This document shows, in pieces, positions 1 through 62,064 of a stretch of 62,064 nucleotides of DNA. Numbering within the stretch: position 1 is the stretch's first letter; each line of letters starts with the position of its first letter. The position numbers and the translations under genes are program-made. The DNA lies in IMG/VR virus record IMGVR_UViG_3300015360_000003, positions 1 to 62,064 of that record; one strand, 5' to 3'. The stretch comes from a virus (lineage: Duplodnaviria > Caudoviricetes). The notes below the pieces were generated by a model, which saw nothing but the letters and a program-made list of their open reading frames with translations, did not search any database and was not told where the DNA came from.

Positions 1-192
1 TCCCATGTGCGAGCCTTCGAGCGTGGCAGGTGGGTAATCATCGGTTAATCCCATGTGCGAGCCTTCGAGCGTGGCAGGTGGGTAAGCCTCGGTTACTCCC
101 ATGTGCGAGCCTTCGAGCGTGGCAGGTGGGTAATCATCGGTTAATCCCATGTGCGAGCCTTCGAGCGTGGCAGGTGGGTAAGCCTCGGTTAC
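1..192. repeat. 48-bp tandem repeat array, 4 units, continuing from the window end
   Basis: TCCCATGTGCGAGCCTTCGAGCGTGGCAGGTGGGTAA-(TCATCGGTTAA or GCCTCGGTTAC) at 1, 49, 97, 145; two variants alternate. Confidence 0.97.
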
Positions 193-242
193 TCCCTACG
201 CGGGTCGGGCGACTATCCGCAATGGGATAGTCGCCCGGTCGG

Positions 243-458
243 TTAACAGTGATGCAATGTACCGGCTTCTAAAATGTACAGTGTAGATAGGATCGTAGCT
301 AACGGAATACGAAACTTCCTATGCACGAGTTTGGCTACCCGTCGGATCGGATAGCCCTGTTCGACCACTAAGAAGTCAAGGATTCCTGCGGCTGCGAATG
401 AATCGTTATGCCCCAAGTCAATTAAGGCCAGTTCTACTGTTCGGCGCATTTTATTCAT
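243..458 (-). CDS. Hypothetical protein
   Basis: 71-aa ORF overlapping the stop of the upstream gene; GAGG upstream. Confidence 0.6.
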   Translation of the reverse strand: MNKMRRTVELALIDLGHNDSFAAAGILDFLVVEQGYPIRRVAKLVHRKFRIPLATILSTLYILEAGTLHHC

Positions 459-651
459 CCTCAGTTAAGGTTTTTTTACGGCCATCGGTGACACCGTGCC
501 AGAAGTCACCAAAGCCGCCGTTAAATGTGGATTGTGTCTGCTTTACGGCGTCGATGCGGGATACTTCCCCGCATACCTTTAGGCCCGCGCAGCCTGCCCC
601 GAATACGGCCACGAGGATAGCGGCGAGCATACCTAGAAGTACTTGAATCAT
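451..651 (-). CDS. Small putative lipoprotein/membrane protein
   Basis: Hydrophobic N-terminus ending FGAGC (lipobox-like). Confidence 0.55.
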   Translation of the reverse strand: MIQVLLGMLAAILVAVFGAGCAGLKVCGEVSRIDAVKQTQSTFNGGFGDFWHGVTDGRKKTLTEDE

Positions 652-758
652 GTTTTTCACCTAGTTTATAAAACCGCCCATCGTAATTAATGGGCGAATA
701 GTAAGACGACTATTCAATCGGCAACGATTCGATTTTACATAAGCGTAAATGTCTTATC

Positions 759-977
759 TTAGCCCTCTAATATTTTAAAATCGATAAAGGAGGATTCACC
801 TGATAGGATCTCCTGCCAATGATCCGCCCAACGCAGGGTATATTCCCCATTCGGGTGATGTATAAGCTGGCTGTACGAATCCCCTTTGATCTCGGCTAAT
901 GTTTTACCCTCATAAGAGCCGGGTATACTACTTCGACAGAGGCCGCGAACGACACATGATGGTTTGTATAAAGGCAT
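759..977 (-). CDS. Hypothetical protein
   Basis: ORF tightly packed in the minus-strand early operon. Confidence 0.6.
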   Translation of the reverse strand: MPLYKPSCVVRGLCRSSIPGSYEGKTLAEIKGDSYSQLIHHPNGEYTLRWADHWQEILSGESSFIDFKILEG

Positions 978-979
978 AT

Positions 980-1177
980 TTACCTGTTGTGCATGATAGG
1001 CGTTATTTTATGTGTGAGGGGGTCGTATTTACAAAGCCGTTTCTTCCAGCCCGGAGGTATGACGATCTCTTTAAAAAGTCGTATGACGTTCTCAAGTGTA
1101 TCGTTGTAAAGTTTTTCGTGGCGGGGCCGATAGCTTTCTTTTTTACCCGTGGCGAGCTGGATGATGTATGTTTCCAT
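980..1177 (-). CDS. Hypothetical protein
   Basis: ORF abutting neighbours on both sides. Confidence 0.6.
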   Translation of the reverse strand: METYIIQLATGKKESYRPRHEKLYNDTLENVIRLFKEIVIPPGWKKRLCKYDPLTHKITPIMHNR

Positions 1178-1471
1178 TTAGCCCACCATTTTCCATACGA
1201 CGCGCATAGCCATGGCTGGCCCTTTGCTATCCGCGATAGCCAAAAGCTTTACGCGGCCTTCTTCTGGTAGTAGGTCAAATATTTTTACAAATGCGGAAGC
1301 ACTAAAAGAGTCGATCATATCGCCGTGCCAACGTGCACACTGTTGTTCATTTAGTATTTTGCGGCAAACATCAATCATGCTCTTAGAGTTCTTACGTCGG
1401 GGAGCGGATCGAATCGTCGATAACACGTCGGCTAGTTCGGCGCGGTCGTTTGTATCTTCAGGTGTTTTCAT
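1178..1471 (-). CDS. Hypothetical phage protein (IDSFSASA motif)
   Basis: 97 aa; GGAAACAAAATG leader; follows hairpin 1. Confidence 0.8.
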   Translation of the reverse strand: MKTPEDTNDRAELADVLSTIRSAPRRKNSKSMIDVCRKILNEQQCARWHGDMIDSFSASAFVKIFDLLPEEGRVKLLAIADSKGPAMAMRVVWKMVG

Positions 1472-1508
1472 TTTGTTTCCAGTGTTTTCATTTTGTTTCC
1501 AGTGTTTT

Positions 1509-1558
1509 AAACGTTCAATCGATTCGCTATCTGCAAATAGCGAATCCGTTGAAAGTTT
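1509..1558 (-). repeat. Intergenic hairpin element, copy 1
   Basis: Top strand AAACGTTCAATCGATTCGCTAT-CTGCAA-ATAGCGAATCCGTTGAAAGTTT. Confidence 0.95.
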
Positions 1559-1592
1559 TACTCAGCTACTGTAGTTTTATACTCCTCAAAAG

Positions 1593-1967
1593 CTACGCGG
1601 TTATCAAACACTCGTTGTTTTCGCAGTCATTGCAGTTATTGCAGTCATTGCAGCGGGCGCAGTCATTGCAGTTATTGCAGTCATTGCAGCGGGCGCAGTC
1701 ATTGCAGTTATTGCAGTGGGTGCATTTGGTGCAGCGGGCGCAGTCATCGCAGTCATTGCAGGTATTGCAGTTATTGCAGTGGGTGCATTTGGTGCAGCGG
1801 GTGCAGTCATTGCAGTCAGCGCAATTGGTGCAGCCGAAGCACTCAACACAATCGTCACAGTGGTAGCAATTGTATAGCGTCGCAAGAGAAGCTCTCGCAA
1901 GCACTTCACTTCCCCATTTTTCAATCGAGGCTCGGTTTTTGTTTTTGTCAGTGATCCAGGTTTTCAT
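1593..1967 (-). CDS. Cys-rich CxxC repeat protein (family D)
   Basis: KTWITD..NRASIEKWGSE N-terminus, then Cys every third residue; paralogue of 2339-2833 and 53135-53737. Confidence 0.85.
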   Translation of the reverse strand: MKTWITDKNKNRASIEKWGSEVLARASLATLYNCYHCDDCVECFGCTNCADCNDCTRCTKCTHCNNCNTCNDCDDCARCTKCTHCNNCNDCARCNDCNNCNDCARCNDCNNCNDCENNECLITA

Positions 1968-2218
1968 TTTGTTTCCATTGTTTTAAACATTAAAAAATCG
2001 GGGGGGTAGATAGTCAGTATAAAATCTAAACAGGTGGTAAATTCGGACACGGATAGATCCATCTCGGTGCGGAAATGCATTTTGTATCCATCGATTTTCA
2101 TTCGCTGGATACAGGTCCCGAACCCTTTAATATGCAGGTGGTTTTTTGAGTACGAGTAGCCGCCTTTACTGCTACGGCGTAGTCGGTTGATCTCCGCGAT
2201 TATCTTGTCAGTGCCCAT
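1964..2218 (-). CDS. Hypothetical protein (family C)
   Basis: MGTDKIIAEINRLRRSSK...; paralogue of 6692-6922; C-terminus extended by an extra base in a G7 run. Confidence 0.8.
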   Translation of the reverse strand: MGTDKIIAEINRLRRSSKGGYSYSKNHLHIKGFGTCIQRMKIDGYKMHFRTEMDLSVSEFTTCLDFILTIYPPDFLMFKTMETK

Positions 2219-2236
2219 AATTGTTTCCAGTGGTTT

Positions 2237-2286
2237 AAACATTCAATCGATTCGCTATCTGCAAATAGCGAATCCGTTGAAAGTTT
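2237..2286 (-). repeat. Intergenic hairpin element, copy 2
   Basis: One substitution relative to copy 1. Confidence 0.95.
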
Positions 2287-2338
2287 TACTCGGTTACTGT
2301 AGTTTTATACTCCTCAAAAGCTACGCGGTTATCCACCA

Positions 2339-2833
2339 CTAGCTGTTTTCGCAGTCAACACAGTCATTGCAGTTATTGCAGTGGGTGCATTTGGTGCAGC
2401 GGGTGCAGTCATCGCAATCATTGCAGTGGGTACAATCATCACAATCATTGCAGTTATTACAATGGGGGCATTTGGCGCAGTCATTGCAGTTATTGCAATA
2501 AAGGCATTTGGTGCATCGGGTGCATTTGGCGCAGTCATTGCAGTTATTGCAATAAAGGCATTTGGTGCATCGGGTGCATTTGGCGCAGTCATTGCAGTTA
2601 TTGCAATAAAGGCATTTGGTGTATCGGGTGCATTTGGCGCAGCGGGCGCAGTCATCGCAGCGGGCGCAGTCATCGCAATTGGTGCAGCCGAAGCAATCAA
2701 CGCAATCGTCGCAATCGGCGCAATTTCGCAGCGTCACGAGTGAAGCTCTCGCAAGTGCCTCACTTCCCCATTTTTCAATCGAGGCGCGGTTTCTGTTTTC
2801 GTCGGTGATCCAAGTTTTGGGTTTAGTGTTCAT
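2339..2833 (-). CDS. Cys-rich CxxC repeat protein (family D)
   Basis: Same N-terminus as 1593-1967; 18-aa repeat CAKCTRCTKCLYCNNCND x3. Confidence 0.85.
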   Translation of the reverse strand: MNTKPKTWITDENRNRASIEKWGSEALARASLVTLRNCADCDDCVDCFGCTNCDDCARCDDCARCAKCTRYTKCLYCNNCNDCAKCTRCTKCLYCNNCNDCAKCTRCTKCLYCNNCNDCAKCPHCNNCNDCDDCTHCNDCDDCTRCTKCTHCNNCNDCVDCENS

Positions 2834-3021
2834 TCTGTTTCCTTTAAAAGTTTAACTAATACGGCTACGGTTTTTGTGGCGATGCGTCCAGCTTCCATTC
2901 CATCTCGGTATAATTCCGAACCTTGCGGATTTTGGGCATCGATTGTTTCGACGATAAAGTCGTATAAAGTTTCTGCGAATCCGGGCACGGTCACGAAGCG
3001 GTTTACATAGTCAGGGTTCAT
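2830..3021 (-). CDS. Hypothetical protein
   Basis: Likely start MNPDYV after a GAGAAATCAAATG leader; ATGA overlap with the next gene. Confidence 0.7.
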   Translation of the reverse strand: MNPDYVNRFVTVPGFAETLYDFIVETIDAQNPQGSELYRDGMEAGRIATKTVAVLVKLLKETE

Positions 3022-3031
3022 TTGATTTCTC

Positions 3032-3417
3032 GTTTGCGTAAAACTTGGCCGGTGGAAGTCCCGGCTTGGAAGTGGGAGGTTAAAGCCCGAAATCTTCCGG
3101 CTCTTCGCCACGATTCGGCGCGTAGTGATAAATCGCCTCATATTCAGCTTCGGACTCACAGATTATTTGCGCGCCGCGATCGGTGAGTAACACAGTAAAG
3201 CGCTCAGGCGGCAACGGGACTCCGTTCGCGTGTCGCGTAACTCTTATTAATTTGAGAGTTTCCAGCTCCCGAAGATTGGCCGCGCTGTACACGTCCGTAA
3301 AATGCTGGCCATGTTCGTTGCGGTCAATGATCTCGGAAAGGATTTCATGTTTCTGTTTAGTGTTCATTTTGTTTTCCTTGTTTGCGTAAAACTTGGCCGG
3401 TGGAAGTCCCGGCTTGG
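3032..3417. repeat. 38-bp perfect direct repeat (3032-3069 and 3380-3417) flanking one gene
   Basis: GTTTGCGTAAAACTTGGCCGGTGGAAGTCCCGGCTTGG twice; internal GCCGG/CCGGC stem. Confidence 0.95.
3080..3367 (-). CDS. Winged-helix-like small protein (family B)
   Basis: MNTKQK..RNEHGQHFTDVY..L.ELE..LI..LTDRG; paralogue of 6993-7259 and 8271-8489. Confidence 0.75.
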   Translation of the reverse strand: MNTKQKHEILSEIIDRNEHGQHFTDVYSAANLRELETLKLIRVTRHANGVPLPPERFTVLLTDRGAQIICESEAEYEAIYHYAPNRGEEPEDFGL

Positions 3418-3420
3418 GGG

Positions 3421-3687
3421 CTAGTCTTTGAACCATTCGTCGCCGATTTTTTCAAAGCAACCGTGGTCCGCTAGGTAGTAGTTGAACTCTTTATGATTGG
3501 AATCGAGCACAACAAACGCGCCAGGTACACAATGGTTGTCCTTTGCTAGTAGCTCCTTCTCGATCTCCTCTGTCGTGTAGCGCTCGATCTCGCAGTCTGC
3601 GATAGCTGCGGCTCTCGTTTCGCCCGCGCCGAACAGCCAATATCCGTATTGTACGACGGCGAATTTAATAGGGGTTTTAGTGTGCAT
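3421..3687 (-). CDS. Hypothetical protein (family A)
   Basis: KFAVVQYG..GAGETRA..EKIGDEWF; one of four paralogues. Confidence 0.85.
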   Translation of the reverse strand: MHTKTPIKFAVVQYGYWLFGAGETRAAAIADCEIERYTTEEIEKELLAKDNHCVPGAFVVLDSNHKEFNYYLADHGCFEKIGDEWFKD

Positions 3688-3704
3688 TTTGTTTCCATTG
3701 TTTT

Positions 3705-3724
3705 AAACATTCAATCGATTCGCT
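3705..3724 (-). repeat. Truncated half copy of the hairpin element
   Basis: AAACATTCAATCGATTCGCT with no partner arm. Confidence 0.85.
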
Positions 3725-3772
3725 TTATCGAGCCACCAGTTTTCATAATTCTTTTCCGGGCATAAAAATTTA

Positions 3773-4390
3773 TCAGGCTTCGGGACGTGGTGCGCGCATT
3801 GCCATGACGACGGCTTTGCAGTGTCCTTCGTCGTGTTCGATCAAAACTTGGCCGCCTTGATACCAGGAAATCGTAAAAATTCCTTCTCCTTCTTTATTTG
3901 CCGTAGCGTCGGTCAGGTACTCAAGATCTATGCAAGAAGATTGGGAATCGATAATAGACTGAATATCGCCTTTTACGTTGGCTATTCTGAGCGCGAATTT
4001 CAAATCAAATTGTTTCCCGTGTGACGCCCCGAACGAAATCTCTACGGCACCAAATTTACAAATAGTTACTCCCGGGCAGTAATTGTTTTTTAAAAACTTG
4101 GATGTGCCGATCAAAAATTTACGGTCATCTGCGGCTAAGAGCAGCGAGAAAGACGCAAGCAACCTATCCGAATTGTTCGGTAACACGTCACGCCACGACG
4201 GGAAATCGACATCCTCACCGGACAGTGAGAAACCCTTTTCGATTTTTTCACTCGAAACGATGTGGATTCGTTTCCCGTCGGTCGCCACTGTGTAGTCCGT
4301 GTCACGGTACGGCGCACGTAGATTTGGGTAGGCACGATCTTTCGACGTTGCCAGATTTAACCAGTCGGTCGGTGATGATATTTTCGTCAT
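3773..4390 (-). CDS. Sliding-clamp (DNA Pol III beta)-like protein, partial
   Basis: ATSKD..L....VATDGKR motif, FPSWRDVLP, C-terminal AVVMAMR resembling clamp VVMPMR; only 205 aa. Confidence 0.55.
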   Translation of the reverse strand: MTKISSPTDWLNLATSKDRAYPNLRAPYRDTDYTVATDGKRIHIVSSEKIEKGFSLSGEDVDFPSWRDVLPNNSDRLLASFSLLLAADDRKFLIGTSKFLKNNYCPGVTICKFGAVEISFGASHGKQFDLKFALRIANVKGDIQSIIDSQSSCIDLEYLTDATANKEGEGIFTISWYQGGQVLIEHDEGHCKAVVMAMRAPRPEA

Positions 4391-4406
4391 ATGTTTCCAT
4401 TGTTTT

Positions 4407-4458
4407 AAACGTTCAATCGATTCGCTAGTCTCGCGACTAGCGAATCCGGTGAAGGCTT
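4407..4458 (-). repeat. Intergenic hairpin element, copy 3
   Basis: GATTCGCTAGTC-TCGC-GACTAGCGAATC; GCGA (GNRA) loop on the coding strand. Confidence 0.95.
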
Positions 4459-4460
4459 AA

Positions 4461-5075
4461 TTAAGATTGGGTTTGAGTATGGATTGCCCGAAGCATTTTC
4501 AATACTTGAGGATCTTCAATTGCGTTCCAAAGAAAGTCATCTATATGATTGCTACATACCAAAGCTTCAGCTATGGATTTTTCCCATAGCTCGCCAACAT
4601 CGATGTATGAGTTTATGAATGCTTCGAGTAGCACGGCGATTTGGTTATGGTCCCAAGTCAAGACATTACTTGCCCAATCGGATAAGTCGCTGGAGTAAAA
4701 CGATAAGAAACCGGACCGGGACGTAAAGCATTTTTTAATTTGTCTACGCAGTAGTGCCGGATCTACTAGACTGAACACGCGCAAAACCTCCGCGTCTTCG
4801 ATGGTACAAAATATCTGGTCGGTTTGGAAATTGTACTCGCGTGGACTGATTAGTTTTTCAAACGAGATGGCTATGCTGAAGGTATGTGCGAATTGTTCGG
4901 TGTAGTTTTTTGCGTACTGAGAAAAAACCGCCGGCCAACAAATAGCCGCGAATATTACAGCAGAGTTTGGGCATGAGGTGTCCTCAGTACCTTTAATCAG
5001 GTGATCGTAGGCGGTATCCACGGCGTCGGCATGTTCAGTCTGGTAGAATCCTGCGAATGGTAATGTCGTCTTCAT
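4461..5075 (-). CDS. Hypothetical phage protein (PFAGFY/SPREYNF/SRSGFLSFY motifs)
   Basis: ~204-aa ORF between two hairpins; GGAAAAC leader. Confidence 0.85.
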   Translation of the reverse strand: MKTTLPFAGFYQTEHADAVDTAYDHLIKGTEDTSCPNSAVIFAAICWPAVFSQYAKNYTEQFAHTFSIAISFEKLISPREYNFQTDQIFCTIEDAEVLRVFSLVDPALLRRQIKKCFTSRSGFLSFYSSDLSDWASNVLTWDHNQIAVLLEAFINSYIDVGELWEKSIAEALVCSNHIDDFLWNAIEDPQVLKMLRAIHTQTQS

Positions 5076-5093
5076 AATGTTTTCCGTTTGTTT

Positions 5094-5143
5094 AAACAAT
5101 CAATTGATCCGCTATCTGCGACTAGCGAATCTGTTGAGGGTTT
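5094..5143 (-). repeat. Intergenic hairpin element, copy 4 (degenerate)
   Basis: AAACAATCAATTGATCCGCTA...TAGCGAATCTGTTGAGGGTTT. Confidence 0.8.
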
Positions 5144-5154
5144 ATAAACTCTTC

Positions 5155-5553
5155 TTATAGCCACCGGGATGTAAGAGCATAACCACCGTCGGGATCTCGC
5201 ACGTCCGCACCTAGTCCGTTTCTGCCATAGTCTTTACCGGCCTCTGCGGGAATATATCCCTGCGGGAATAGCGCACGCCCTAATGCGTAGATAGTATGAA
5301 ACCCCATGTCCATGCCACAGCCATTTATGCTTAGCGCAGGAGTGCCGCGCAGCGACACAAGACGCAGGCCAAGTACTGCTGCCATCGGGCAGGTAATTCC
5401 GGTTATTTCCCCGTCACGGAGAATAAAAAAACTGATTTTTCGATTCATGCCCGAACGACTCACGGATCGCAGAACGCAGTACACGGTATCGCCGGGCTTC
5501 AACACTGCGCATAGGTGATTACGGTCATCTTCGCGATCTTTTTGCTTTGTCAT
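5155..5553 (-). CDS. Hypothetical phage protein (SVSRSGM/GCGMDMGF motifs)
   Basis: ORF between hairpins; AGGAAAAC leader. Confidence 0.85.
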   Translation of the reverse strand: MTKQKDREDDRNHLCAVLKPGDTVYCVLRSVSRSGMNRKISFFILRDGEITGITCPMAAVLGLRLVSLRGTPALSINGCGMDMGFHTIYALGRALFPQGYIPAEAGKDYGRNGLGADVRDPDGGYALTSRWL

Positions 5554-5571
5554 AATTGTTTTCCTTGTTTT

Positions 5572-5624
5572 AAACATTCAATCGATTCGCTAGTCGCCGT
5601 GCCTAGCGAATCTGTTGAAAGTTT
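5572..5624 (-). repeat. Intergenic hairpin element, copy 5
   Basis: GATTCGCTAG...CTAGCGAATC; overlaps the TAA of 5623-5916. Confidence 0.95.
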
Positions 5625-5916
5625 AACAACCTAATTCCCCAATTTCGCGGTAGCAGTGAGTGCATTGAGCAGCTGACTCTTCCCCCACTTCTACGCCTAC
5701 CGCTTCATAAGCTTGCCCAATAATTTGCCATTCGTTCGCTTCTCGTAAAAGTGTAGCTTTGAGTACTAGTCGGATGTTGTCCTTAATACACGTAGCGCAT
5801 AGCAGGTCGCCGCAAACTGTGACTCCTAACCGATCATAGCAGCCGGGGAAAGTGCAAGGATGGCGGGTAATGCTTTTAACTATTTTGTTACCCGCAAAGT
5901 TTAGTGCTTTTTTCAT
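5623..5916 (-). CDS. Hypothetical protein with two CxxC pairs
   Basis: FPGCY..LCATC..CTHC; GGGAAAC leader. Confidence 0.8.
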   Translation of the reverse strand: MKKALNFAGNKIVKSITRHPCTFPGCYDRLGVTVCGDLLCATCIKDNIRLVLKATLLREANEWQIIGQAYEAVGVEVGEESAAQCTHCYREIGELGC

Positions 5917-5952
5917 AAGTGTTTCCCTTGTTTTAAAGTGTTAACGGCTTCG

Positions 5953-6315
5953 CTAGTCGGCTAAATAGTCAGCTGACAAGCCGTATGTTTTCACGCCGTC
6001 CACATGTACATTATCGAGATCTCCGGCTCCTGGCATACACGGAGAGCAAAACGCGCAATTGATAATGTGAGGCGATTTAAACACGAATAAAAAGTAAGAA
6101 TCGGTCGCGTAGTGACAAATCAAACCGTTTTTGTTGTACGAGAATCCCAATGGTTCGGCGAAGTCGTCGTCATCGGATAAACCTTCAGGATATTCCGCAT
6201 CGAAGTTTTGCAGCCAATCAGGATCGCAGGAGTTCAGCGAGATCACACCGTAGCGAATTCCCGTTTCTACGTCGATGTTAGCTTTGCCGTGTCCGTAGTC
6301 TATTCCGATGTACAT
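5953..6315 (-). CDS. Hypothetical phage protein (ETGIRYGVIS/CSPCMPGAGDL motifs)
   Basis: 120 aa, acidic; AGGAAAC leader after hairpin 6. Confidence 0.85.
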   Translation of the reverse strand: MYIGIDYGHGKANIDVETGIRYGVISLNSCDPDWLQNFDAEYPEGLSDDDDFAEPLGFSYNKNGLICHYATDSYFLFVFKSPHIINCAFCSPCMPGAGDLDNVHVDGVKTYGLSADYLAD

Positions 6316-6331
6316 GGGTTTCCTTTTTTTT

Positions 6332-6383
6332 AAACATTCAATCGATTCGCTAGTCGCGTGCCTAGCGAATCTGTTGAACGTTT
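6332..6383 (-). repeat. Intergenic hairpin element, copy 6
   Basis: Conserved arms; overlaps the TAA of 6382-6669. Confidence 0.95.
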
Positions 6384-6669
6384 AGGCCTCGAACCAAGCA
6401 CCACCGAATTTTTCGTAGCCTCCTTGATTCTGTAGGTAGTCGTCGAAGTCTCTGTGGTCGGATTCGAGTACTACGAATTTTCCGTCGGTCCCGAAATCGT
6501 GGTGATCGAGCAGCTCGCTCTCGATCTCCGCCGGAGTGAGAAGATCGCCGGAGCCGTCGCCGTTTTCAATTTGAGCGTTAGCGAGTGCTAACGCTCGCGT
6601 CTCGCCAGCACCGAACACGCAAGAGCCGAGTTCTATCAACGCGAATTTGAGCGGGTTCTTGTTTTTCAT
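6382..6669 (-). CDS. Hypothetical protein (family A)
   Basis: KFALIELG..GAGETRA..ESDHRDFDDYL..GGYEKFG..WF. Confidence 0.85.
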   Translation of the reverse strand: MKNKNPLKFALIELGSCVFGAGETRALALANAQIENGDGSGDLLTPAEIESELLDHHDFGTDGKFVVLESDHRDFDDYLQNQGGYEKFGGAWFEA

Positions 6670-6691
6670 TTTGTTTTCCTTTTGTTAAAAA

Positions 6692-6922
6692 TTAAAAAAT
6701 CGGTGGGTAGGTAGTCAGTATGGACGTTAAACGTGCGTTAAATTCGGACACGGATAGATCCATCATGGTGTCGAACTGTGTCTCGTATCCGTCGATCTTC
6801 ATACGCTGAATCCAAGTGCCGAATCCTTTAAGGTGTATATGGTTGTTCGAGTACCAATACCATCGGTTTTTACTGCTGCGTCGTAGCTGATTGATCTCCG
6901 CGATTATTTTGTCAGTGTTCAT
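6692..6922 (-). CDS. Hypothetical protein (family C)
   Basis: Paralogue of 1964-2218. Confidence 0.85.
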   Translation of the reverse strand: MNTDKIIAEINQLRRSSKNRWYWYSNNHIHLKGFGTWIQRMKIDGYETQFDTMMDLSVSEFNARLTSILTTYPPIF

Positions 6923-6944
6923 AATTGTTTCCTTGTGTGTGCGT

Positions 6945-6992
6945 AACCATTCAATCGATCACCTAGCCGCGACTAGGTGATCTGTTAAACGC
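6945..6992 (-). repeat. Intergenic hairpin element, copy 7
   Basis: TTCAATC-GATCACCTAG-CCGCGA-CTAGGTGATC-TGTT: different upper-stem sequence, pairing kept. Confidence 0.9.
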
Positions 6993-7259
6993 TCAGGCTT
7001 CGATCTCCTCCTCGAATTCCATCGGACTGGCCCAATCATCGGCGTACGCATCTTCGTCGTCGTCGGTGACATCCACAGTCCAATAATCCGGTCCGTATGG
7101 GATGCCAGTTTCGAGATGCACCGGACGATCAATCTCAATTGACCCCTCCGCTTCTAGCTCGATTAAATCAGCGTGATTGTAGAGGTCCGTAAAATGCTGG
7201 CCGCGCTCGTTGCGTGTCGTAATCTTCGAGATGATTTTGTGTTTCTGTTCATTGTTCAT
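6993..7259 (-). CDS. Winged-helix-like small protein with acidic tail (family B)
   Basis: RNERGQHFTDLY..L.ELEAEG.I; D/E-rich C-terminus. Confidence 0.8.
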   Translation of the reverse strand: MNNEQKHKIISKITTRNERGQHFTDLYNHADLIELEAEGSIEIDRPVHLETGIPYGPDYWTVDVTDDDEDAYADDWASPMEFEEEIEA

Positions 7260-7283
7260 TTTGTTGTCCTTTTAAAGTTAAAG

Positions 7284-7565
7284 CTACGCCTCGAACCAGT
7301 CATTACCGATTTTGTTATAATAGCCGTGATCAGCTAAATATCCGTCAAAATCTTCATGGTCGGATTCGAGCACAAAGAACGTAGCGTCTACACCGTAGCT
7401 ATACTCTTCGAGCAGCTCGCTCTCGATCTCAGCAGGAGTATAGCGCTTGCCGTTAATGCGCTCGATCTCGCAGTCCGCGACGGCTTCGGCTCTCGTTTCG
7501 CCAGTGCCGTGTACACAATAACCGTATTGGATAACGGCGAATTTGATGGGGGTTTTAGTGTGCAT
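7284..7565 (-). CDS. Hypothetical protein (family A)
   Basis: MHTKTPIKFAV N-terminus identical to 3421-3687. Confidence 0.85.
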   Translation of the reverse strand: MHTKTPIKFAVIQYGYCVHGTGETRAEAVADCEIERINGKRYTPAEIESELLEEYSYGVDATFFVLESDHEDFDGYLADHGYYNKIGNDWFEA

Positions 7566-7582
7566 TTTGGTTTCCTTTTTTT

Positions 7583-7632
7583 AAACGTTCAATCGATCAG
7601 CCAGGCGAACCTGGCCGATCCGTTGAAAGTTT
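7583..7632 (-). repeat. Intergenic hairpin element, copy 8
   Basis: GATCAGCCAGG-CGAA-CCTGGCCGATC; UUCG loop on the coding strand. Confidence 0.95.
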
Positions 7633-7744
7633 AGTCTCGGTCAAGCAGCAGGTTTAAAAAATTCTGTACGACAAAGAAAGCGAGCAGGAGGATTCCAGCG
7701 AGCAAGGATGCGAGAATGAAGTGACCGCAGATTAAGCCGAGCAT
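7631..7744 (-). CDS. 37-aa membrane peptide (below ORF-track cutoff)
   Basis: MLGLICGHFILASLLAGILLLAFFVVQNFLNLLLDRD; GGAAAAC leader; TAA overlaps hairpin 8. Confidence 0.75.
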   Translation of the reverse strand: MLGLICGHFILASLLAGILLLAFFVVQNFLNLLLDRD

Positions 7745-7767
7745 TGTGTTTTCCGGTTTTTAAACGA

Positions 7768-7887
7768 TTATCGCGTAGCGAGATATCGGATGGCTCGATC
7801 TAGTCGCGCCAGCAGATCGGCGTCGTCTAAATCGTAGCGTACGATAGTGTTGCGAGCCGTTTTCAGTGTGTGCAAGAGTGTGCGCAT
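7768..7887 (-). CDS. 39-aa peptide (below ORF-track cutoff)
   Basis: MRTLLHTLKTARNTIVRYDLDDADLLARLDRAIRYLATR; AGGAAC leader right after hairpin 9. Confidence 0.7.
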   Translation of the reverse strand: MRTLLHTLKTARNTIVRYDLDDADLLARLDRAIRYLATR

Positions 7888-7905
7888 AGCAGTTCCTTTT
7901 TTTGT

Positions 7906-7955
7906 AAACGTTCAATCGATCGGCCTGGCGAACCTGGCCGATCCGTTGAAAGTTT
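7906..7955 (-). repeat. Intergenic hairpin element, copy 9
   Basis: One mismatch to copy 10; overlaps the TAA of 7954-8202. Confidence 0.95.
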
Positions 7956-8202
7956 AAGCTTTGAACCAATCGTTGCCGATTTTTTCGTAGCCTCCTTGAT
8001 TTTTGAGGTATCCGTCAAAGTCGGCGTGATCGGATTCGAGCATCTTGAATTTGGCCGTGCCGTTTTCGTGGTGCGAGATCATCTCGTCAAGCCGTAGGAT
8101 CGTAGCGTCGATAGCAGCGTCGCGTGTTTCGCCAGCGCCAAAAACACAAACGCCGAGTTGGACGACTGCGAATTTGATAGGGTTTTGGTTGTTCGATTTC
8201 AT
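7954..8202 (-). CDS. Hypothetical protein (family A)
   Basis: KFAVVQLG..GAGETR..ESDHADFDGYL..GGYEKIGNDWF. Confidence 0.85.
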   Translation of the reverse strand: MKSNNQNPIKFAVVQLGVCVFGAGETRDAAIDATILRLDEMISHHENGTAKFKMLESDHADFDGYLKNQGGYEKIGNDWFKA

Positions 8203-8222
8203 TTTGATTTCCGGTTTAAATT

Positions 8223-8272
8223 AAACGTTCAATCGATCGGCCAGGCGAACCTGGCCGATCCGTTGAAAGTTT
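8223..8272 (-). repeat. Intergenic hairpin element, copy 10
   Basis: GATCGGCCAGG-CGAA-CCTGGCCGATC perfect upper stem; overlaps the TAA of 8271-8489. Confidence 0.95.
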
Positions 8273-8489
8273 AATCGTCGCTTTCAACGTTGACAAAAGA
8301 TTCGCCGTCTTCTGTCAAATTGCATTCCCAGTCACCGGGGCGTTCGGCACCAATCCGATGAATTCGCAGCAAACCTTCAGCTTCGAGCGCCAAGAGATCG
8401 GCCAGTTTGTACACGTCCGTAAAGTGCTCTCTGCGCTCGTTGTAATCCGTGATGTGCTCTAAGATCTGGCATTTTTGTTTATCGTTCAT
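8271..8489 (-). CDS. Winged-helix-like small protein (family B)
   Basis: HFTDVY..L.ALEAEGLLRI..LTEDG. Confidence 0.8.
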   Translation of the reverse strand: MNDKQKCQILEHITDYNERREHFTDVYKLADLLALEAEGLLRIHRIGAERPGDWECNLTEDGESFVNVESDD

Positions 8490-8513
8490 TTTGATTTCCT
8501 TTTTTTGGTTAAA

Positions 8514-8642
8514 CTAAAATCTGCGCGCTCGGCGCGCTACGTCGTTAGTCAGATACGCGATACCGACAGATATCGCGAGCACGACGAGTAAAGCGATCGC
8601 TGCGTAGATCTCAATGTCGATGTGGGGAAGTAAATTGAGCAT
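8514..8642 (-). CDS. 42-aa membrane peptide, first gene of the early operon
   Basis: MLNLLPHIDIEIYAAIALLVVLAISVGIAYLTNDVARRARRF; AGGAAC leader. Confidence 0.7.
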   Translation of the reverse strand: MLNLLPHIDIEIYAAIALLVVLAISVGIAYLTNDVARRARRF

Positions 8643-8670
8643 TTTGAGTTCCTTTTCTAGACCGCAATTC

Positions 8671-8731
8671 AGCATAACCTGATAGATGCGCGTCAGTCAA
8701 GCAAAAGGTGTATTTAATTTATTTTTTTTAA
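8671..8731 (-). promoter_or_regulatory. Sigma70-like early promoter with AT-rich UP element
   Basis: TTGACT (8700-8695), 18-nt spacer, TATGCT (8676-8671); A/T tract 8711-8731. Confidence 0.7.
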
Positions 8732-8834
8732 CTTGATATCGGCACAAAACGTATTCACGCGTAAAATCGAGTAGTTAATACGGCAAATGGTGTAGTCGCC
8801 GCACTGTATATATACAGTGCAATCGCGTCACGGA

Positions 8835-8907
8835 TGATCGCCGCTGCCCAAATTGATCGCCGCTGCCCAAATTGATCGCCGCTGCCCAAATGATCGTCGC
8901 TGCCCAA
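8835..8907. repeat. ~19-bp tandem repeat x4
   Basis: TGATCGCCGCTGCCCAAAT units at 8835, 8854, 8873, 8891. Confidence 0.9.
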
Positions 8908-9160
8908 GTAGATCGTCGTGCGTGTGGGTACGCGCATCGTTCGTTCGAGTGGATGCTTCGGACTCGGACGGATGATCGTGGATCGGACGTTGGGTTAGGG
9001 ACTAGTTTTGAACAACTGGTGAAGTAAGGCTTCGATTCGCAACTGAGTACTCTCTTTTCTGTGGCTAGGGATCGGTCACCGATTCGCCTAGACCCCCCCC
9101 CCTACGCCCAGGATCGATATAGATCGATTTTAAAAAAGTGTGCAGCGGCCGATGAAGAAA

Positions 9161-9210
9161 TACACCATATGGTTACACATACATGTACACCGTATGGTTA
9201 CCCATACATG
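9161..9210. repeat. 25-bp direct repeat x2
   Basis: TACACC(A/G)TATGGTTAC(A/C)CATACATG. Confidence 0.85.
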
Positions 9211-9244
9211 GGCAGCAGCCACCCTTCACAGCCAAGCAAAGGCT

Positions 9245-9273
9245 TTGACGAGCACGGCAAAACCCCGTACTCT
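9245..9273 (+). promoter_or_regulatory. Sigma70-like promoter, probably giving a leaderless transcript
   Basis: TTGACG-N17-TACTCT; ATG at 9280 with no SD. Confidence 0.6.
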
Positions 9274-9279
9274 ATATGT

Positions 9280-9621
9280 ATGGTGAAAAAGAAACTCGGC
9301 GGCGACACTTTACCGATACACGCGGAGACGAACACTCCAGAGTTCTTCAGTATCCACACAGTCTCAAACTATGAGCTGGAACAGTTCACGGCCATAGATG
9401 AAGGGCATACAGAGAAAGAGACGACGGTTGCCGACCTTCAGCATTTAAACAATCATCTGGCGATGTGTAATGGGGTGCTGCCCCAAATCAAAACCATTCA
9501 GTCACTCTGTATGATATCGAACACCGTGTGCAAATTAATCGAGACGCGCAGGAAAGTTAAGAAGTTGCCATTCGGGGACCCGAAAGGCGGCGGGGGCCAG
9601 ACGATTGAAATACTAGAGTAG
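9280..9621 (+). CDS. Hypothetical protein (terminase small subunit candidate by position only)
   Basis: 3' part of ORF 9061-9621 from MVKKK; converges on TerL. Confidence 0.55.
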   Translation: MVKKKLGGDTLPIHAETNTPEFFSIHTVSNYELEQFTAIDEGHTEKETTVADLQHLNNHLAMCNGVLPQIKTIQSLCMISNTVCKLIETRRKVKKLPFGDPKGGGGQTIEILE

Positions 9622-9626
9622 CGTCT

Positions 9627-11498
9627 TTAAAAAGACCGTTTCCCTAGTAAACTTCCAATCCCTTTAGAATAAGCAGCCCTTGGGTTGTAAGGGGCCTTTG
9701 GAGCCAACTGCTCTTGGTATGCTTTAAGAGCGACATCGTAATGCCTAGACTCTTCGTTCGCATAGCGCACCACTTCTAGTTCCTGCCCAGGGAAGAATCC
9801 GAAGTGCAGGATTGCGGACTGCAGACAGAGCATGGCGGCGTCCGCTTCATCAGGAGAGCGCCCTAAACTAGAATTGGCTTTCGACATCCGGCTTTTGTAT
9901 TCGGCTTTCTTCTCAAGTGCCTTCTTTCCGCCCTTATCGATAATATGTCTCGTGTGAAGCTGGCCGTAAGCCAACGGGTCGAGGCCGTGTATCTGCCTGT
10001 TCGTGATGAATTCTTTTCCGGTTGTCCACATCTCGTAAGAAGAAGTAGTAACGATGTCGGGGCTGTTTACTTTATGCTGCCCGATGTTTGTCGAATATAT
10101 TTTCGTTGGCGTAAAGCCTGTACCTGAACGCAGTTGAATCACGTCAGCCAGGCCACGACCCTGACCGGAAGCATCGATACACAAAACATTTAAAGGGATT
10201 TGGTATTGGATACAGATAGCAATTACCTGGTCGGCTATTTGAATCTCTGCCGACTTTCCAGTGTTCGGCAGGATCTTAATATGAAATACAAAGTGCGGAC
10301 CTCGATAATCTAAAACCATCCTGCCGTTTACATGATGACCGAGAACGGCTAGGCGCAGGATACATTTATCCCCGCCAGTAGAAAAAGCAGGATCTAATCC
10401 GGCAGTGATGTGTAGTGTATGGAGGCCCGAAAATTCTGCAGGGCGTGTTGGGTCGTAGTCTTTTAAGAACTCCTCAGTGACTATTTTCTTAGACTCTGTG
10501 GATCTCGCTTTCCAAAAACCCATCGTGAATCGCCAGAAGCCGTCAGAGTCTACGCCTTCATTCCGTTCCGACTCGATTAACTTCTCTTCTGTCATTAAGA
10601 AAACAGAGAGCGCTTTCTTTTTAACAGGGTCTGTTTCGTGTATGGCAGGGGAGTCATACGGATTAAAATAAAGACAGACGCCGTTAGGTTGGGTTGTGAC
10701 CCAACGGAAATCTTTTTTCGGATCGATGTTTCCCCAGCCCACGGCAGGGATAGATACAACACCGTGCAGGTCTTCAGTAGAGTTAGGGTTTCCGATAGCG
10801 ACTGCTTGAAAGCGATCCGCCAATCCCTTTTTAAGATTGGGTACGGCATTAAGAATAGCCATCGGCATCTCAGTAGCTTCGTCTAAGATAAGCATTAGAG
10901 CGCTCTTAGGATGCCGTCCGATAATGTTTTTAATCGTATCTTCCTCAGACCCCTGCTTAGCTGCGATGCCGTAGATGCCGTGGATGAAGTCAGGAGGTTC
11001 TAGAGCAATCGACGGCGGCGGCGTATTGTTTATCCGCAGGGGGTATTTGATTTTTGATTCTTTCAATGCTCGCAGCACGTAGCCGTAGATGCGGGATTTT
11101 AATGAATCAAGAGTTGTAGAGGTTACGATGACTGTATGTTTGTGCGGCAGGGACTGAAAGAAGATCGCCGCCACGTAGGCAATCGATTGTGTTTTTCCAA
11201 TACCACCCCCACCGGCGAGGGAGAAGAACTCAGTATCGTGATCGCAGTGTTCCCAAAAGATCCGCTCCATCCAGTAATTGTACGTGATGACTTGTTCAGG
11301 CCATTGGATTTCAAAGACGCGCTTCATAGCGTCGAAACGGGTTTGGTGCGATTCGTCCGTTCGATAGACTTTGTTATAGATTGCTAGTGGGTGGGTGAGC
11401 GGGAAGGATTTTCCAAAGGCCCAGACGTTGTTGCCGTCTACTTCCCACCCTTCAGCAATGCAGGCTTGTTCTTTCGTATAGCCAGGCGTGGACTTCAT
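9627..11498 (-). CDS. terL: Terminase large subunit
   Basis: Walker A GGGGIGKT, Walker B LILDEA, AIGNPN coupling motif, nuclease GLDPA/IDASG/SPDEADA. Confidence 0.92.
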   Translation of the reverse strand: MKSTPGYTKEQACIAEGWEVDGNNVWAFGKSFPLTHPLAIYNKVYRTDESHQTRFDAMKRVFEIQWPEQVITYNYWMERIFWEHCDHDTEFFSLAGGGGIGKTQSIAYVAAIFFQSLPHKHTVIVTSTTLDSLKSRIYGYVLRALKESKIKYPLRINNTPPPSIALEPPDFIHGIYGIAAKQGSEEDTIKNIIGRHPKSALMLILDEATEMPMAILNAVPNLKKGLADRFQAVAIGNPNSTEDLHGVVSIPAVGWGNIDPKKDFRWVTTQPNGVCLYFNPYDSPAIHETDPVKKKALSVFLMTEEKLIESERNEGVDSDGFWRFTMGFWKARSTESKKIVTEEFLKDYDPTRPAEFSGLHTLHITAGLDPAFSTGGDKCILRLAVLGHHVNGRMVLDYRGPHFVFHIKILPNTGKSAEIQIADQVIAICIQYQIPLNVLCIDASGQGRGLADVIQLRSGTGFTPTKIYSTNIGQHKVNSPDIVTTSSYEMWTTGKEFITNRQIHGLDPLAYGQLHTRHIIDKGGKKALEKKAEYKSRMSKANSSLGRSPDEADAAMLCLQSAILHFGFFPGQELEVVRYANEESRHYDVALKAYQEQLAPKAPYNPRAAYSKGIGSLLGKRSF

Positions 11499-11563
11499 AT
11501 GGTAATGTACCGACTATCCTGCATATACCTCTCAAGTATAGCAGAGTACTAATTGAGTGACCA

Positions 11564-12154
11564 ATGACATTTAGAAAATTCAAAGCTTTAGAGATTTCTC
11601 GCGTCGTCGAGTTTAAAGACCCTGATACTGGGTTGCTGTATACAGCAAAAAATCTCTCTGCGCTGTACGGAAAAATAGTCTCTTACCGCGTACAGAATCA
11701 ATTGGAAATGATCGACCACTTGGCGGAAGTAGTAGCAAATTACTTATGCGGCCTACCTGAAAACTGCAACAAATGTGAGCCGTTGAAAATGCACCGTTCT
11801 TGGTACACGACGGTTCAAGGTGGGATGCTTCTTTTAAAGAACATGTGGTTTAAGAAGCAGTGTTCTCAGAAGACAGCCGAGGCACGGGCGGCTCAATGTG
11901 TAACGTGCAAGTTCAACGTGTTCCCAGATAAAGGACCGTGGATGGCCTTTGCCGACAACATTGCGATTGGACAGGTAGGGGACAAGCATGTGTCAGTCGA
12001 GAAAGAGACTGGTTCTTGTTCGGTGTGTACCTGTGTAATACGGTCAAAAGTATTCTGGGGGGATACACTACCCGCGTTTCCAGATGACCAGGTATCTAAG
12101 TTTAGAGAAGTTTCGTGTTGGCAATTAAAGCTGAGTGGGCAAGATGCAAAATAA
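11564..12154 (+). CDS. Hypothetical Cys-rich (Zn-binding-like) protein
   Basis: CVTCKFN..CSVCTC..CW; first gene of the structural operon. Confidence 0.75.
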   Translation: MTFRKFKALEISRVVEFKDPDTGLLYTAKNLSALYGKIVSYRVQNQLEMIDHLAEVVANYLCGLPENCNKCEPLKMHRSWYTTVQGGMLLLKNMWFKKQCSQKTAEARAAQCVTCKFNVFPDKGPWMAFADNIAIGQVGDKHVSVEKETGSCSVCTCVIRSKVFWGDTLPAFPDDQVSKFREVSCWQLKLSGQDAK

Positions 12155-43685: not shown

Positions 43686-43698
43686 GTGTGCCCTATTT

Positions 43699-43730
43699 AA
43701 AAAGGGAGAAGCTAAACAAGCCTTCTCCCT
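43699..43730 (-). terminator. Rho-independent terminator
   Basis: Minus strand AGGGAGAAG-gcttgtttag-CTTCTCCCT-TTT. Confidence 0.7.
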
Positions 43731-43736
43731 CCCCTA

Positions 43737-43985
43737 CTACTCAGACTTTAGCGAACTATCCGTCTCTTCGGGCTGCGCCGACTCTTCGGCCTGCAGCTTC
43801 GCTGCGTACTGCGCCTCCTCTTCGGCCTGCAGCTTCGCTGCGTACTGCGCCTCCTCTTCGGCCTGCAGCTTCGCGGCGTACTGCGCCTCCTCTTCGGTCT
43901 GCTCCTGATCGGTACGGAGGAGGTGCAACGTCTTAACTTCTACAAGCTCGGCAGTGTCGCTCTCTTTTACTTGGTCATCGTTCAT
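43737..43985 (-). CDS. Acidic hypothetical protein with a 12-aa repeat
   Basis: EEEAQYAAKLQA x3 (36-bp repeat, ~43782-43895). Confidence 0.75.
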   Translation of the reverse strand: MNDDQVKESDTAELVEVKTLHLLRTDQEQTEEEAQYAAKLQAEEEAQYAAKLQAEEEAQYAAKLQAEESAQPEETDSSLKSE

Positions 43986-60876: not shown

Positions 60877-61235
60877 TCCAAAATAGAACAACTGGAAAAC
60901 AAGCGTGTACAGAAGGACTGTTTTTGTACACTCTTGATTTCTTGATACACTCTTGATTCGGAACAAAGCCATAGTATCATTAAGAAAAATCAAGAGTGTA
61001 CAAAATCAAGAGTGTACGGGGGGTATGAGTGTTTCTCTCCCAAAAGGAGAAGAAAGTAAAAACTTTCTGAAAAACGCGACACTCTTGTTTTTTGATTTTC
61101 ATTTATTTATAAATATATGATATTATTATATATATGTATATATAAGAGGGAATCAAGAGTGTATCAAGAGTGTATCAAGAGTGTACAGAAACACTGTTTC
61201 TGTACACTCTTGATTTCCAGGTGTTCTATTTTGGA
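60877..61235. other. Candidate replication origin
   Basis: Multiple TCAAGAGTGTA boxes in both orientations, ~85-bp inverted arms, AT-rich core, next to primase. Confidence 0.65.
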
Positions 61236-61860: not shown

Positions 61861-62064
61861 GAGAGCGGGGGACAGGGGCGAGAGGGGGACAGGGGCGAGC
61901 GTGGCAGGTGGGTAATCATCGGTTAATCCCATGTGCGAGAGGGGGACAGGTGGGTAATCATCGGTTACTGCCATGTGCGAGCCTTCGAGCGTGGCAGGTG
62001 GGTAATCATCGGTTAATCCCATGTGCGAGCCTTCGAGCGTGGCAGGTGGGTAATCATCGGTTAA
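61861..62064. repeat. G-rich lead-in and 48-bp tandem array continuing into base 1
   Basis: GGGGGACAGGGGCGAG x2; hybrid 42-bp unit 61927-61968; full units 61969-62016 and 62017-62064. Confidence 0.95.

Follow-up and report, generated by a model that had tools for sequence, protein, structure and literature searches.

Ten related hairpins punctuate the early region of an uncultured tailed phage, and most likely they are cis-acting elements in a long polycistronic early messenger RNA (mRNA) transcribed from the minus strand. The phage is represented by the IMG/VR virus record IMGVR_UViG_3300015360_000003 (Caudoviricetes), and the window analyzed here is that entire record of 62,064 bases, which is classed as having direct terminal repeats and whose completeness is estimated as full. 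Ten two-armed copies of a hairpin of about 50 nucleotides (nt) lie within positions 1509–8272, all in the same orientation and read from the minus strand (Table 1). Their structure is under selection as an RNA fold. Very probably the hairpins are RNA-level signals that affect how the early message is processed, how stable it is, or how it is translated; for the narrower reading, drawn by analogy with phage T7, that they are RNase III processing sites that also stabilize 3′ ends, we put the chances at about even. The observation is solid, and the mechanism is plausible and familiar.

Structure and Conservation of the Hairpins

With the strict two-arm pattern TTCAAYNGAT-N10–30-ATCGATTGAA, seven matches were obtained, all on the minus strand, as compared with none in 100 shuffles. 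The remaining three copies were recovered when up to four substitutions per arm were allowed, and at that tolerance no two-armed copy outside the ten is present in all 62,064 bases. Folded as minus-strand RNA, each copy has 18–21 pairs in a helix of about 21 base pairs (bp). The lower part comprises, from the base upward, (U)AAAC/GUUU(A) of 4–5 bp, a 1 × 1 mismatch, and UUCAA/UUGAA of 5 bp. It is followed by a central interruption, which is a 2 × 2 internal loop (CG/GA or CA/GA) in nine of the ten copies and a 3 × 3 loop in copy 3. Above this loop, invariant G-C, A-U, and U-A pairs lead into variable pairs; the whole upper stem is 9–12 bp long and is closed by a terminal loop of 4–9 nt, which is UUCG in copies 8–10 and GCGA in copy 3. 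The lower stem, the internal loop, and the first three upper pairs are near-invariant across the ten copies, and the remaining upper stem varies. Copies 1 and 2 sit in a 728-bp tandem duplication (repeat family D4), and copies 8–10 are nearly identical to one another.

Most of this architecture had been recognized in a first-pass annotation made from the sequence alone, and each specific observation in it proved correct. It had described a sequence-conserved base with an internal loop followed by GAT, which corresponds in the folds to the AAAC/GUUU and UUCAA/UUGAA segments, the 2 × 2 loop, and the invariant GAU/AUC pairs. The terminal loops that it gave for copies 3 and 8–10 on the coding strand are as claimed, and its estimate of about 22 bp for the stem agrees with the 18–21 pairs found per copy. 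The absence of a poly-U tail was also borne out, with one of the ten copies (copy 4) terminator-like in the terminator scan. An identity as intrinsic terminators was considered and rejected, because a single copy passes the scan and the base is followed by an A-rich tract in place of a U tract. A search of Rfam 15 with the region 1–9000 gave six matches at E ≤ 1, all far under the gathering scores (microRNA models and RAGATH-25), and the best match on a hairpin scored 22.5 bits against a gathering score of 90.

Table 1. Positions of the hairpins and associated features in the window
Feature	Position	Strand	Characteristics
Hairpin copy 1	1509..1558	-	Located by strict pattern, fold, and repeat analysis
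Hairpin copy 2	2237..2286	-	Differs from copy 1 by one base; in 728-bp tandem duplication
Hairpin copy 3	4407..4458	-	GCGA loop; 12-bp upper stem; 3 × 3 internal loop
Hairpin copy 4	5094..5143	-	Most diverged; 9-bp upper stem, 8-nt loop
Hairpin copy 5	5572..5624	-	9-nt loop; stop codon in 5′ base
Hairpin copy 6	6332..6383	-	8-nt loop; stop codon in 5′ base; upstream of conserved 120-residue gene
Hairpin copy 7	6945..6996	-	Upper stem CACCUAG; four G·U pairs; UGA stop in 5′ base
Hairpin copy 8	7583..7632	-	UUCG loop; one upper-stem G·U; stop codon in 5′ base
Hairpin copy 9	7906..7955	-	UUCG loop; one upper-stem A·A mismatch; stop codon in 5′ base
Hairpin copy 10	8223..8272	-	UUCG loop; upper-stem type CGGCCAGG; upstream UAA stop forms 5′ base
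Half copy	3705..3725	-	3′ arm, leader, and ribosome-binding site kept; unrelated sequence replaces 5′ arm
Degenerate 3′ arm with leader and ribosome-binding site	5931..5960	-	Contains stop codon of upstream gene
Leader and ribosome-binding-site module, no hairpin	7745..7767	-	CGUUUAAAAACCGGAAAAC; repeat and motif search
Leader and ribosome-binding-site module, no hairpin	1972..1988	-	GUUUAAAACAAUGGAAA; motif search
Putative sigma-70-like promoter	8671..8700	-	TTGACT-18-TATGCT; consensus match only; A/T-rich stretch precedes
Canonical intrinsic terminator	674..697	-	9-bp stem, then UUUUAUAAA; downstream of last hairpin

Covariation and Strand Preference

In the minus-strand alignment 201 of 210 cells pair (95.7%), as compared with 91.4% on the plus strand, and compensatory changes on both sides of a pair are found in 6 of the 21 pairs (17 cells). 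The covariation score is 0.267 versus 0.122 in shuffles and was reached by none of 500 shuffles, which were not adjusted for the relatedness of the copies. When, as a control, the partner was slid by 1–3 columns, pairing fell to 21–44%. The nine-cell difference between the strands consists of positions that are G·U on the minus strand and A·C on the plus strand, and on the latter no one-sided wobble change occurs at any variable pair. Nine of the ten copies fold better on the minus strand, with a mean preference of 2.15 kcal/mol; the fold energy of copy 7, for example, is −24.6 on the minus strand and −16.1 on the plus strand. RNAalifold gave −28.49 kcal/mol (covariation term −1.86) for the minus strand and −24.97 kcal/mol (covariation term −0.28) for the plus strand.

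These results uphold the earlier proposals that the hairpins covary, with an upper stem that changes and yet stays paired, and that they fold better on the mRNA strand, although the latter effect is modest. The RNAalifold comparison of both strands was a check set beforehand, and its outcome favors the mRNA strand. Copies 1, 2, 3, and 8 had been singled out as having G-U pairs on the coding strand that are A-C oppositions on the other; this is correct and applies likewise to copies 4, 6, and 7.

Location of the Hairpins at Gene Junctions

Approximately 27 small open reading frames (ORFs) on the minus strand run from 8,700 to about 700, and the hairpins lie within this array. The putative promoter at 8700–8671 is the likely start of the early transcript, and the layout of this promoter and the terminator at 697–674 suggests that the small minus-strand genes are early genes carried on one transcript, so that the early mRNA probably spans the interval from the one to the other. 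The stop codon of the upstream gene forms the 5′ base of the hairpin in six of the ten copies and abuts the base in one more. On the other side, the ribosome-binding site is found 5–10 nt beyond the 3′ base and the start codon 16–22 nt past it, with GGAA between. The hairpins are intercistronic and leave the ribosome-binding site exposed; the first-pass annotation had supposed an exposed site on units cut from the early transcript.

A leader and ribosome-binding-site module, GUUUAAAM-N4-GGAAA, occurs 12 times on the minus strand of 1496–7765 and gives 21 matches in the whole window versus 3.97 expected. Seven of the 12 modules follow full hairpins (copies 1–6 and 8), and the other five are at junctions that have no hairpin or a remnant arm (1972–1988, 3692–3708, 5922–5938, 6675–6691, and 7749–7765). 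The presence of the module at junctions without a full hairpin shows that the 3′ arm is retained for a leader role independent of the hairpin. Because the 5′ base supplies the stop codon and the 3′ arm a leader, the conservation of the base can be explained in part without a specific protein. The remnants show that hairpins have been lost when the element broke internally and that certain junctions can do without one. In a promoter scan of 1–12500, no promoter-like site was found between any hairpin and its start codon. A promoter within the element itself was also considered, consisting of TTGAAC or TTGAAT in the 3′ arm and a CAAAAT-like hexamer 17–18 nt further on; it was rejected as weak, and transcripts from it would begin inside the ORF.

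Hairpins of Similar Build in Related Phages

Relatives of the phage were identified through two of its proteins. A 623-residue protein led to the loci designated L040–L043 (58–68% identity), and a conserved 120-residue early protein led to the more distant L049–L054. Searches for the hairpin motif of the window itself in other genomes returned 32 loci in a 16-nt scan of IMG/VR, none of which has a second arm, and which are therefore taken as chance matches; the sole return of a metagenome scan was the contig of L040. A query with the DNA polymerase gave one locus at 24% identity, which was left unused. Energy-threshold hairpin scans, of the whole genome and of both strands of the relatives, were too unspecific to serve as a null, and the comparison was therefore confined to hairpins at gene junctions.

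L043, L040, L051, and L052 have hairpins that are alike in build and unrelated in sequence, located at junctions of small genes on the sense strand, and L053 has identical hairpins at the coordinates of those in L052. The junction hairpins of the relatives have 19–25 pairs, with an upper stem of 10–12 bp, where measured, followed by a 1 × 1, 2 × 2, or 1 × 2 interruption. The upstream stop codon falls within the 5′ arm or precedes it by no more than 17 nt, and a Shine-Dalgarno sequence and start codon are found 14–35 nt past the 3′ arm. When the ten hairpins of the window are taken together with seven of the relatives, all 17 have 18–24 pairs, those of the relatives having 19–24, and an upper stem of 9–12 bp, most commonly 11, followed by an interruption (in copy 9 this count runs across the A·A mismatch); their loops are 3–9 nt long and varied in sequence. 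One hairpin of L043 (14976–15027) has the same CA/GA loop closed by G-C.

The strand preference is also seen in these phages. A sense-strand preference of more than 1 kcal/mol (range, 1.2–14) is seen in 12 of 14 junction hairpins of the relatives; the other two show no preference, and the antisense strand is preferred in none. Seven of the 14 contain 21 G·U pairs as compared with two A·C oppositions. With DNA energy parameters, the strand asymmetry of three tested hairpins drops from 8.5–14.8 to 1.5–3.2 kcal/mol, an indication that the folding molecule is RNA and not a same-sense single strand of DNA. The relatives give stronger evidence for an RNA-level role than does the window alone.

The conservation of position can be followed at orthologous genes. 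The gene for the 120-residue protein, which is 57% identical between the window and L043, has a hairpin both upstream and downstream in L043, L051, and L052, and the sequences of these flanking hairpins are unrelated between lineages. In the window, copy 6 is upstream of this gene and a decayed copy is downstream. A second pair of orthologs (32% identity) is flanked by hairpins in the window and in L043. The early region extends over about 8 kb in the window and about 4.7 kb in L043. In L049, a 98-kb contig, the sequence TTACTAGCTAGTA recurs directly after hairpins (approximately 268–290, 951–975, 3100–3115, 3807–3825, and 5905–5920) and may be a phage-specific promoter or processing motif.

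Proposed Processing of the Early Message

In the mechanism that we consider, host RNase III would bind the two-turn helix and nick it at the central 2 × 2 loop. The upstream message would then end in the 11-bp upper hairpin just past its stop codon, blocking 3′ exonucleases, and the downstream message would open with the A/U-rich 3′ arm and run through GGAAAC to the start codon, so that the ribosome-binding site would be free. Both the reader, RNase III, and the position of its cut are inferred by analogy with characterized substrates. In the accounts cited, Escherichia coli RNase III has substrates that usually comprise two helical turns (about 20–22 bp), and 11 bp from the cut site to the tetraloop is the minimum for good reactivity; the cut is set neither by the sequence of the loop nor by its position, cleavage is confined to one strand where the target has an internal loop or a mismatch, and a single cut leaves a 3′ hairpin that shields the upstream RNA from exonucleases (PMC3867540, PMC1540722). 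The hairpins match this substrate geometry, to which the first-pass annotation had already appealed, in having about two turns, about 11 bp from the terminal loop to the internal loop, and varied loops (PMC1540722, PMC3867540), where the match in spacing assumes that the internal loop is the target of RNase III. The proximal-box and distal-box rules are those of E. coli, which is probably not the host, and they depend on the register set by the cut; in an assumed register, the A-U and U-A that stand second and third above the loop would agree with them.

A search of the phage proteins detected no RNase III domain and no dsRBD. No T7-type RNA polymerase domain was detected either, which is a weak absence because the search was positive in no control genome. 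Given the lack of all three domains, a host enzyme is the simplest reader. Pfam searches with ten of the early proteins gave no match for nine and, for the tenth, one match below the cut-off.

Several observations weigh against RNase III processing or limit the evidence for it. The copies are related by duplication; with copies 1 and 2 duplicated and copies 8–10 near-identical, there are just four or five independent stem types. The strand preference within the window is real but small, and the invariant C·A of the 2 × 2 loop in the sense strand is a U·G pair on the plus strand in all ten copies. The invariant G-C pair adjoining the 2 × 2 loop would be a catalytic antideterminant if it occupies position 4 of the proximal box, under the E. 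coli rules described in the cited account (PMC1540722), which leaves room for binding without cleavage. Furthermore, the hairpins are more conserved in sequence than RNase III is known to need, which could point to a sequence-specific reader. Among the relatives, the junction hairpins were chosen by eye from ORF maps, and scans also give many matches in coding regions on both strands. L049, L050, and L054 have the homolog of the 120-residue protein without such flanking hairpins, and none were found at the distant loci L045 and L046, which had been identified through another early protein family. Protein binding, exonuclease blocking, and translational coupling are possible roles beside cleavage.

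Alternative Explanations

It is rather unlikely that the hairpins act uncut, as structural punctuation that blocks 3′–5′ exonucleases once other cleavages have occurred, keeps Rho off untranslated gaps, insulates ribosome-binding sites from folding with upstream RNA, and draws the stop codon near the next ribosome-binding site so that terminating ribosomes re-initiate. Such a role would suit the seven of ten copies whose 5′ base contains or adjoins a stop codon, with the ribosome-binding site closely following the 3′ base, the same layout in the relatives, and the retention of the 3′ arm as a leader at the five junctions where the hairpin is absent or a remnant; it leaves unexplained the regular two-tier helix with about 11 bp above a central interruption, which a simple clamp does not need. 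The hairpins might instead be bound or cut by a phage protein, either an RNA-binding protein or an endoribonuclease, that is specific for their sequence and co-evolves with the hairpin family of each lineage. Such a protein would account for a lower stem, 2 × 2 loop, and GAU/AUC pairs that are invariant within the genome alongside a drifting upper stem, and for the complete replacement of sequence between lineages that keep shape and position. The early region is also rich in proteins without a family, with nine of the ten scanned having no Pfam match. However, among the phage proteins searched there was neither an RNase III domain nor a dsRBD, nor any other domain for RNA binding, and the overlap with the stop codon together with the leader role of the 3′ arm offers another explanation for the conserved base; we regard recognition by such a protein as unlikely. 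The proposal that each lineage of this phage group has its own hairpin family, which concerted evolution keeps uniform within the genome and which is read by a co-evolving phage protein that binds or cuts RNA, and not by host RNase III, is distinctly unlikely. One candidate reader under this proposal would be the 120-residue early protein, with its GIDYG and CSPC-PGAG motifs, whose gene is flanked by hairpins in four lineages; its structural model is of low confidence, with a predicted local distance difference test (pLDDT) score of 65.6, and it has no fold match with E < 0.9.

Some features of the region are those expected of DNA crossover repeats that shuffle, duplicate, or lose small early cassettes. 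Several paralog families and the 728-bp tandem duplication lie between copies (families D4 and D7–D12), half or degenerate copies are broken inside the element (3705–3725 and 5931–5960), the early region differs in length from that of L043, and the promoter-early stem-loops (PeSLs) of T4-like phages, which are cassettes of a stem-loop, a promoter, and a Shine-Dalgarno sequence, are described as mediating such exchanges (PMC4122927). Recombination requires identity rather than pairing, however, and the compensatory changes and sense-strand G·U pairs show selection for an RNA fold; with no promoter between stem-loop and Shine-Dalgarno sequence, shuffling is more likely a side effect, and as the function of the elements it is improbable. 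A role as leaky terminators, attenuators, or pause sites that lack a canonical U tract is very improbable. The hairpins are stable and located at gene ends, copy 4 scored as terminator-like, and the base has a moderately U-rich 3′ arm (GUUUA, with UUUUUAA and GGUUUUAC in relatives), but the other nine copies did not pass the scan, the lower stem holds the U residues in pairs with an A-rich tract after them, and the phage has a textbook terminator at 697–674 and a hairpin at 43690–43746 (minus strand) followed by UUUUU. Finally, the elements are near-palindromes of about 50 bp that could extrude from DNA, and nine of the ten have the palindrome AATCGATT or ATCGAT in the 3′ arm, features that would accord with single-stranded DNA or cruciform structures such as N4-type hairpin promoters, priming sites, or protein-binding palindromes. 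We consider this extremely improbable. The bias favors the non-template, mRNA-sense strand and rests on G·U pairs, being minor under DNA parameters, and a site for a dimeric DNA-binding protein would conserve sequence and not covary. The promoters of phage N4 have stems of 5–7 bp and loops of 3 nt, unlike the helices of about 21 bp found here, and no RNA polymerase gene was recognized in the phage, which is weak evidence. RNase III processing of the early message is the most likely single reading.

Other Features of the Early Region and the Genome

The 120-residue early protein (5953–6315, minus strand) has invariant GIDYGxG, SP, and CSPCxPGA motifs and is found in at least seven phage lineages (the window, L043, and L049–L054). 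It has no Pfam or PDB match, and a profile search against PDB sequences gave E values of 0.26 or worse. In its predicted structure the conserved motifs are in segments of low confidence. The N-terminal motif is reminiscent of RNase H-fold nucleases, but the fold search gave nothing significant, the best PDB match having E 0.9 and those to RNase HIII E values of about 2.

Other small proteins of the early region form families of paralogs. The proteins encoded at 1593–1967 and 2339–2833 (minus strand) consist mostly of CxxCxxC repeats (for example, CNNCNDCAKCTRCTKC), and their genes give rise to DNA repeats with a 9-nt period (family D1) and to weak, spurious Rfam microRNA matches. Four paralogs of 82–95 residues (3421–3687, 6382–6669, 7284–7565, and 7954–8202, minus strand) share invariant P-x-KFA and G-x-GETR motifs, and a pair of IMG/VR contigs beyond the window encode distant homologs with 32–34% identity. 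Another two families are small, one with three members (N termini MNxxQKxxI) and one with two (N termini TDKIIAEIN). A second repeated intergenic element, CCAAGCCGGGACUUCCACCGGCCAAGUUUUACGCAAAC, which has a short GCCGG/CCGGC hairpin, precedes two genes (3030–3069 and 3375–3420, minus strand); in L043 the CCACCGGCCAA core of this element is found after a junction hairpin, at approximately 15030–15050. Upstream of the early promoter, there are four direct repeats of TTTGGGCAGCGGCGATCA-like units at approximately 8835–8908 and then a 20-bp palindrome, GCACTGTATATATACAGTGC, at 8801–8820. A run of ten G residues is present on the minus strand at 9093–9102.

The 623-residue protein that was used to find the closer relatives is encoded at 9627–11498 (minus strand) and has a GGGCGKT Walker A motif. 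It has no match in Pfam, PHROGs, PDB, or cultured phages and, judged from that motif, is probably a very divergent large terminase. Genes for DNA polymerase, helicase, primase, and exonuclease are grouped on one side of the window, and a long plus-strand block holds a tail-fiber chaperone domain and a lytic tail protein. Most of the large proteins of the window have no match in Pfam, PHROGs, or PDB sequences; this includes the large virion proteins, one of them of 2074 residues, among which there may be a virion RNA polymerase. Tandem repeats of 48 bp, with at least four units, occupy positions 1–240 at the left end and recur at 61981–62040 at the right end, and the direct terminal repeat call of the record could stem from this array. 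Just past the primase gene, a perfect palindrome with 20-bp arms (ATCAAGAGTGTACAGAAACA and TGTTTCTGTACACTCTTGAT) is found at 61174–61214, and a second hairpin at 60894–60942 has a GTGTACAGAA...TGTACACTCTTGAT core in common with it; the two could represent an operator or an origin. A search of sequencing runs located DNA reads of the phage in one microbial mat metagenome and listed no RNA run containing it. Comparison with cultured phages by megablast and tblastn gave either nothing or a single match, at 27% identity, to a Xanthomonas jumbo phage.

Implications

If RNase III processing is correct, an uncultured phage lineage with almost no recognizable genes chops or caps its lengthy early message, in a manner like that of T7, at two-turn hairpins that recur along it. 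The novelty is evolutionary: related phages keep the shape and position of the hairpins at the same junctions and replace the whole sequence, while copies within a genome stay alike. What is kept is a stop codon in the 5′ base, an upper stem of about 11 bp, a central interruption, and a ribosome-binding site just beyond. This pattern provides a sequence-free signature for early operons and cistron boundaries in metagenomic phages and a source of natural insulator parts. It would amount to a new kind of biology only if the reader were a phage protein. No description of this hairpin family was found in Rfam, in searches of phage records, or in the literature on RNase III sites, ESAS, and PeSL, where an uncultured contig is unlikely to be indexed.

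Comparison with Known Systems

The closest functional analogue appears to be the set of RNase III sites in the early mRNA of phage T7 (R0.3, R0.5, R1, R1.1, and R1.3). In both cases intercistronic hairpins are located in an early transcript, made in T7 and presumably here by the host polymerase, with several related copies per genome. Their helices have about two turns, the terminal loop stands about 11 bp away from a central internal loop, and nothing depends on loop sequence. The expected products are also alike: the upstream mRNA would have a 3′ hairpin cap, and the ribosome-binding site of the downstream mRNA would be free. The present hairpins differ in sharing no sequence similarity with the T7 sites, in their number (ten copies in about 7 kb), and in having the stop codon within the 5′ base. 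T7 R1.1 has a larger, asymmetric internal loop, whereas the loop here is small, symmetric, and 2 × 2.

In layout only, the closest descriptive analogue is the arrangement of extended start-associated sequences and start-associated sequences (ESAS/SAS) of the Cluster K mycobacteriophages. As described, ESAS are imperfect 17-bp inverted repeats with a spacer of 4–13 bp, immediately upstream of the ribosome-binding-site motif SAS; they occur in one orientation at a subset of nonstructural genes, their position is conserved by gene family, their consensus varies by subcluster, and their function is reported as still unknown (PMC3203893, PMC12699233). The hairpins of the window are similarly inverted repeats directly before a ribosome-binding-site motif, in a single orientation and with a lineage-specific consensus, but their arms are 22–24 nt long as compared with 17, and the phage lineage is unrelated. 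A search of the window for the 13-bp SAS consensus, GGGATAGGAGCCC, gave one match with two mismatches at 224–236, outside the hairpin region, versus 0.81 expected.

The PeSLs of T4-like phages are described as having short, terminator-like stems and a sigma-70 promoter placed after the stem-loop and before the Shine-Dalgarno sequence (PMC4122927). As in those cassettes, a repeated stem-loop, Shine-Dalgarno sequence, and start codon flank small, variable early genes, with degraded half copies and hints that cassettes have been duplicated and lost. In the window, half copies and duplicated paralogs adjoin hairpin copies and could mark the ends of insertions and deletions, and no genome close enough to map such ends was found. 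In contrast to PeSL, the distance from hairpin to start is just 16–22 nt, and the helix is about 21 bp long with an internal loop; a promoter cassette of the PeSL type was rejected on its promoter requirement, as the scan of 1–12500 shows no promoter-like site between hairpin and start. Judged by these comparisons, the design appears familiar and the sequence family new, and the most useful new point is the conservation of hairpin shape across lineages with complete turnover of sequence.

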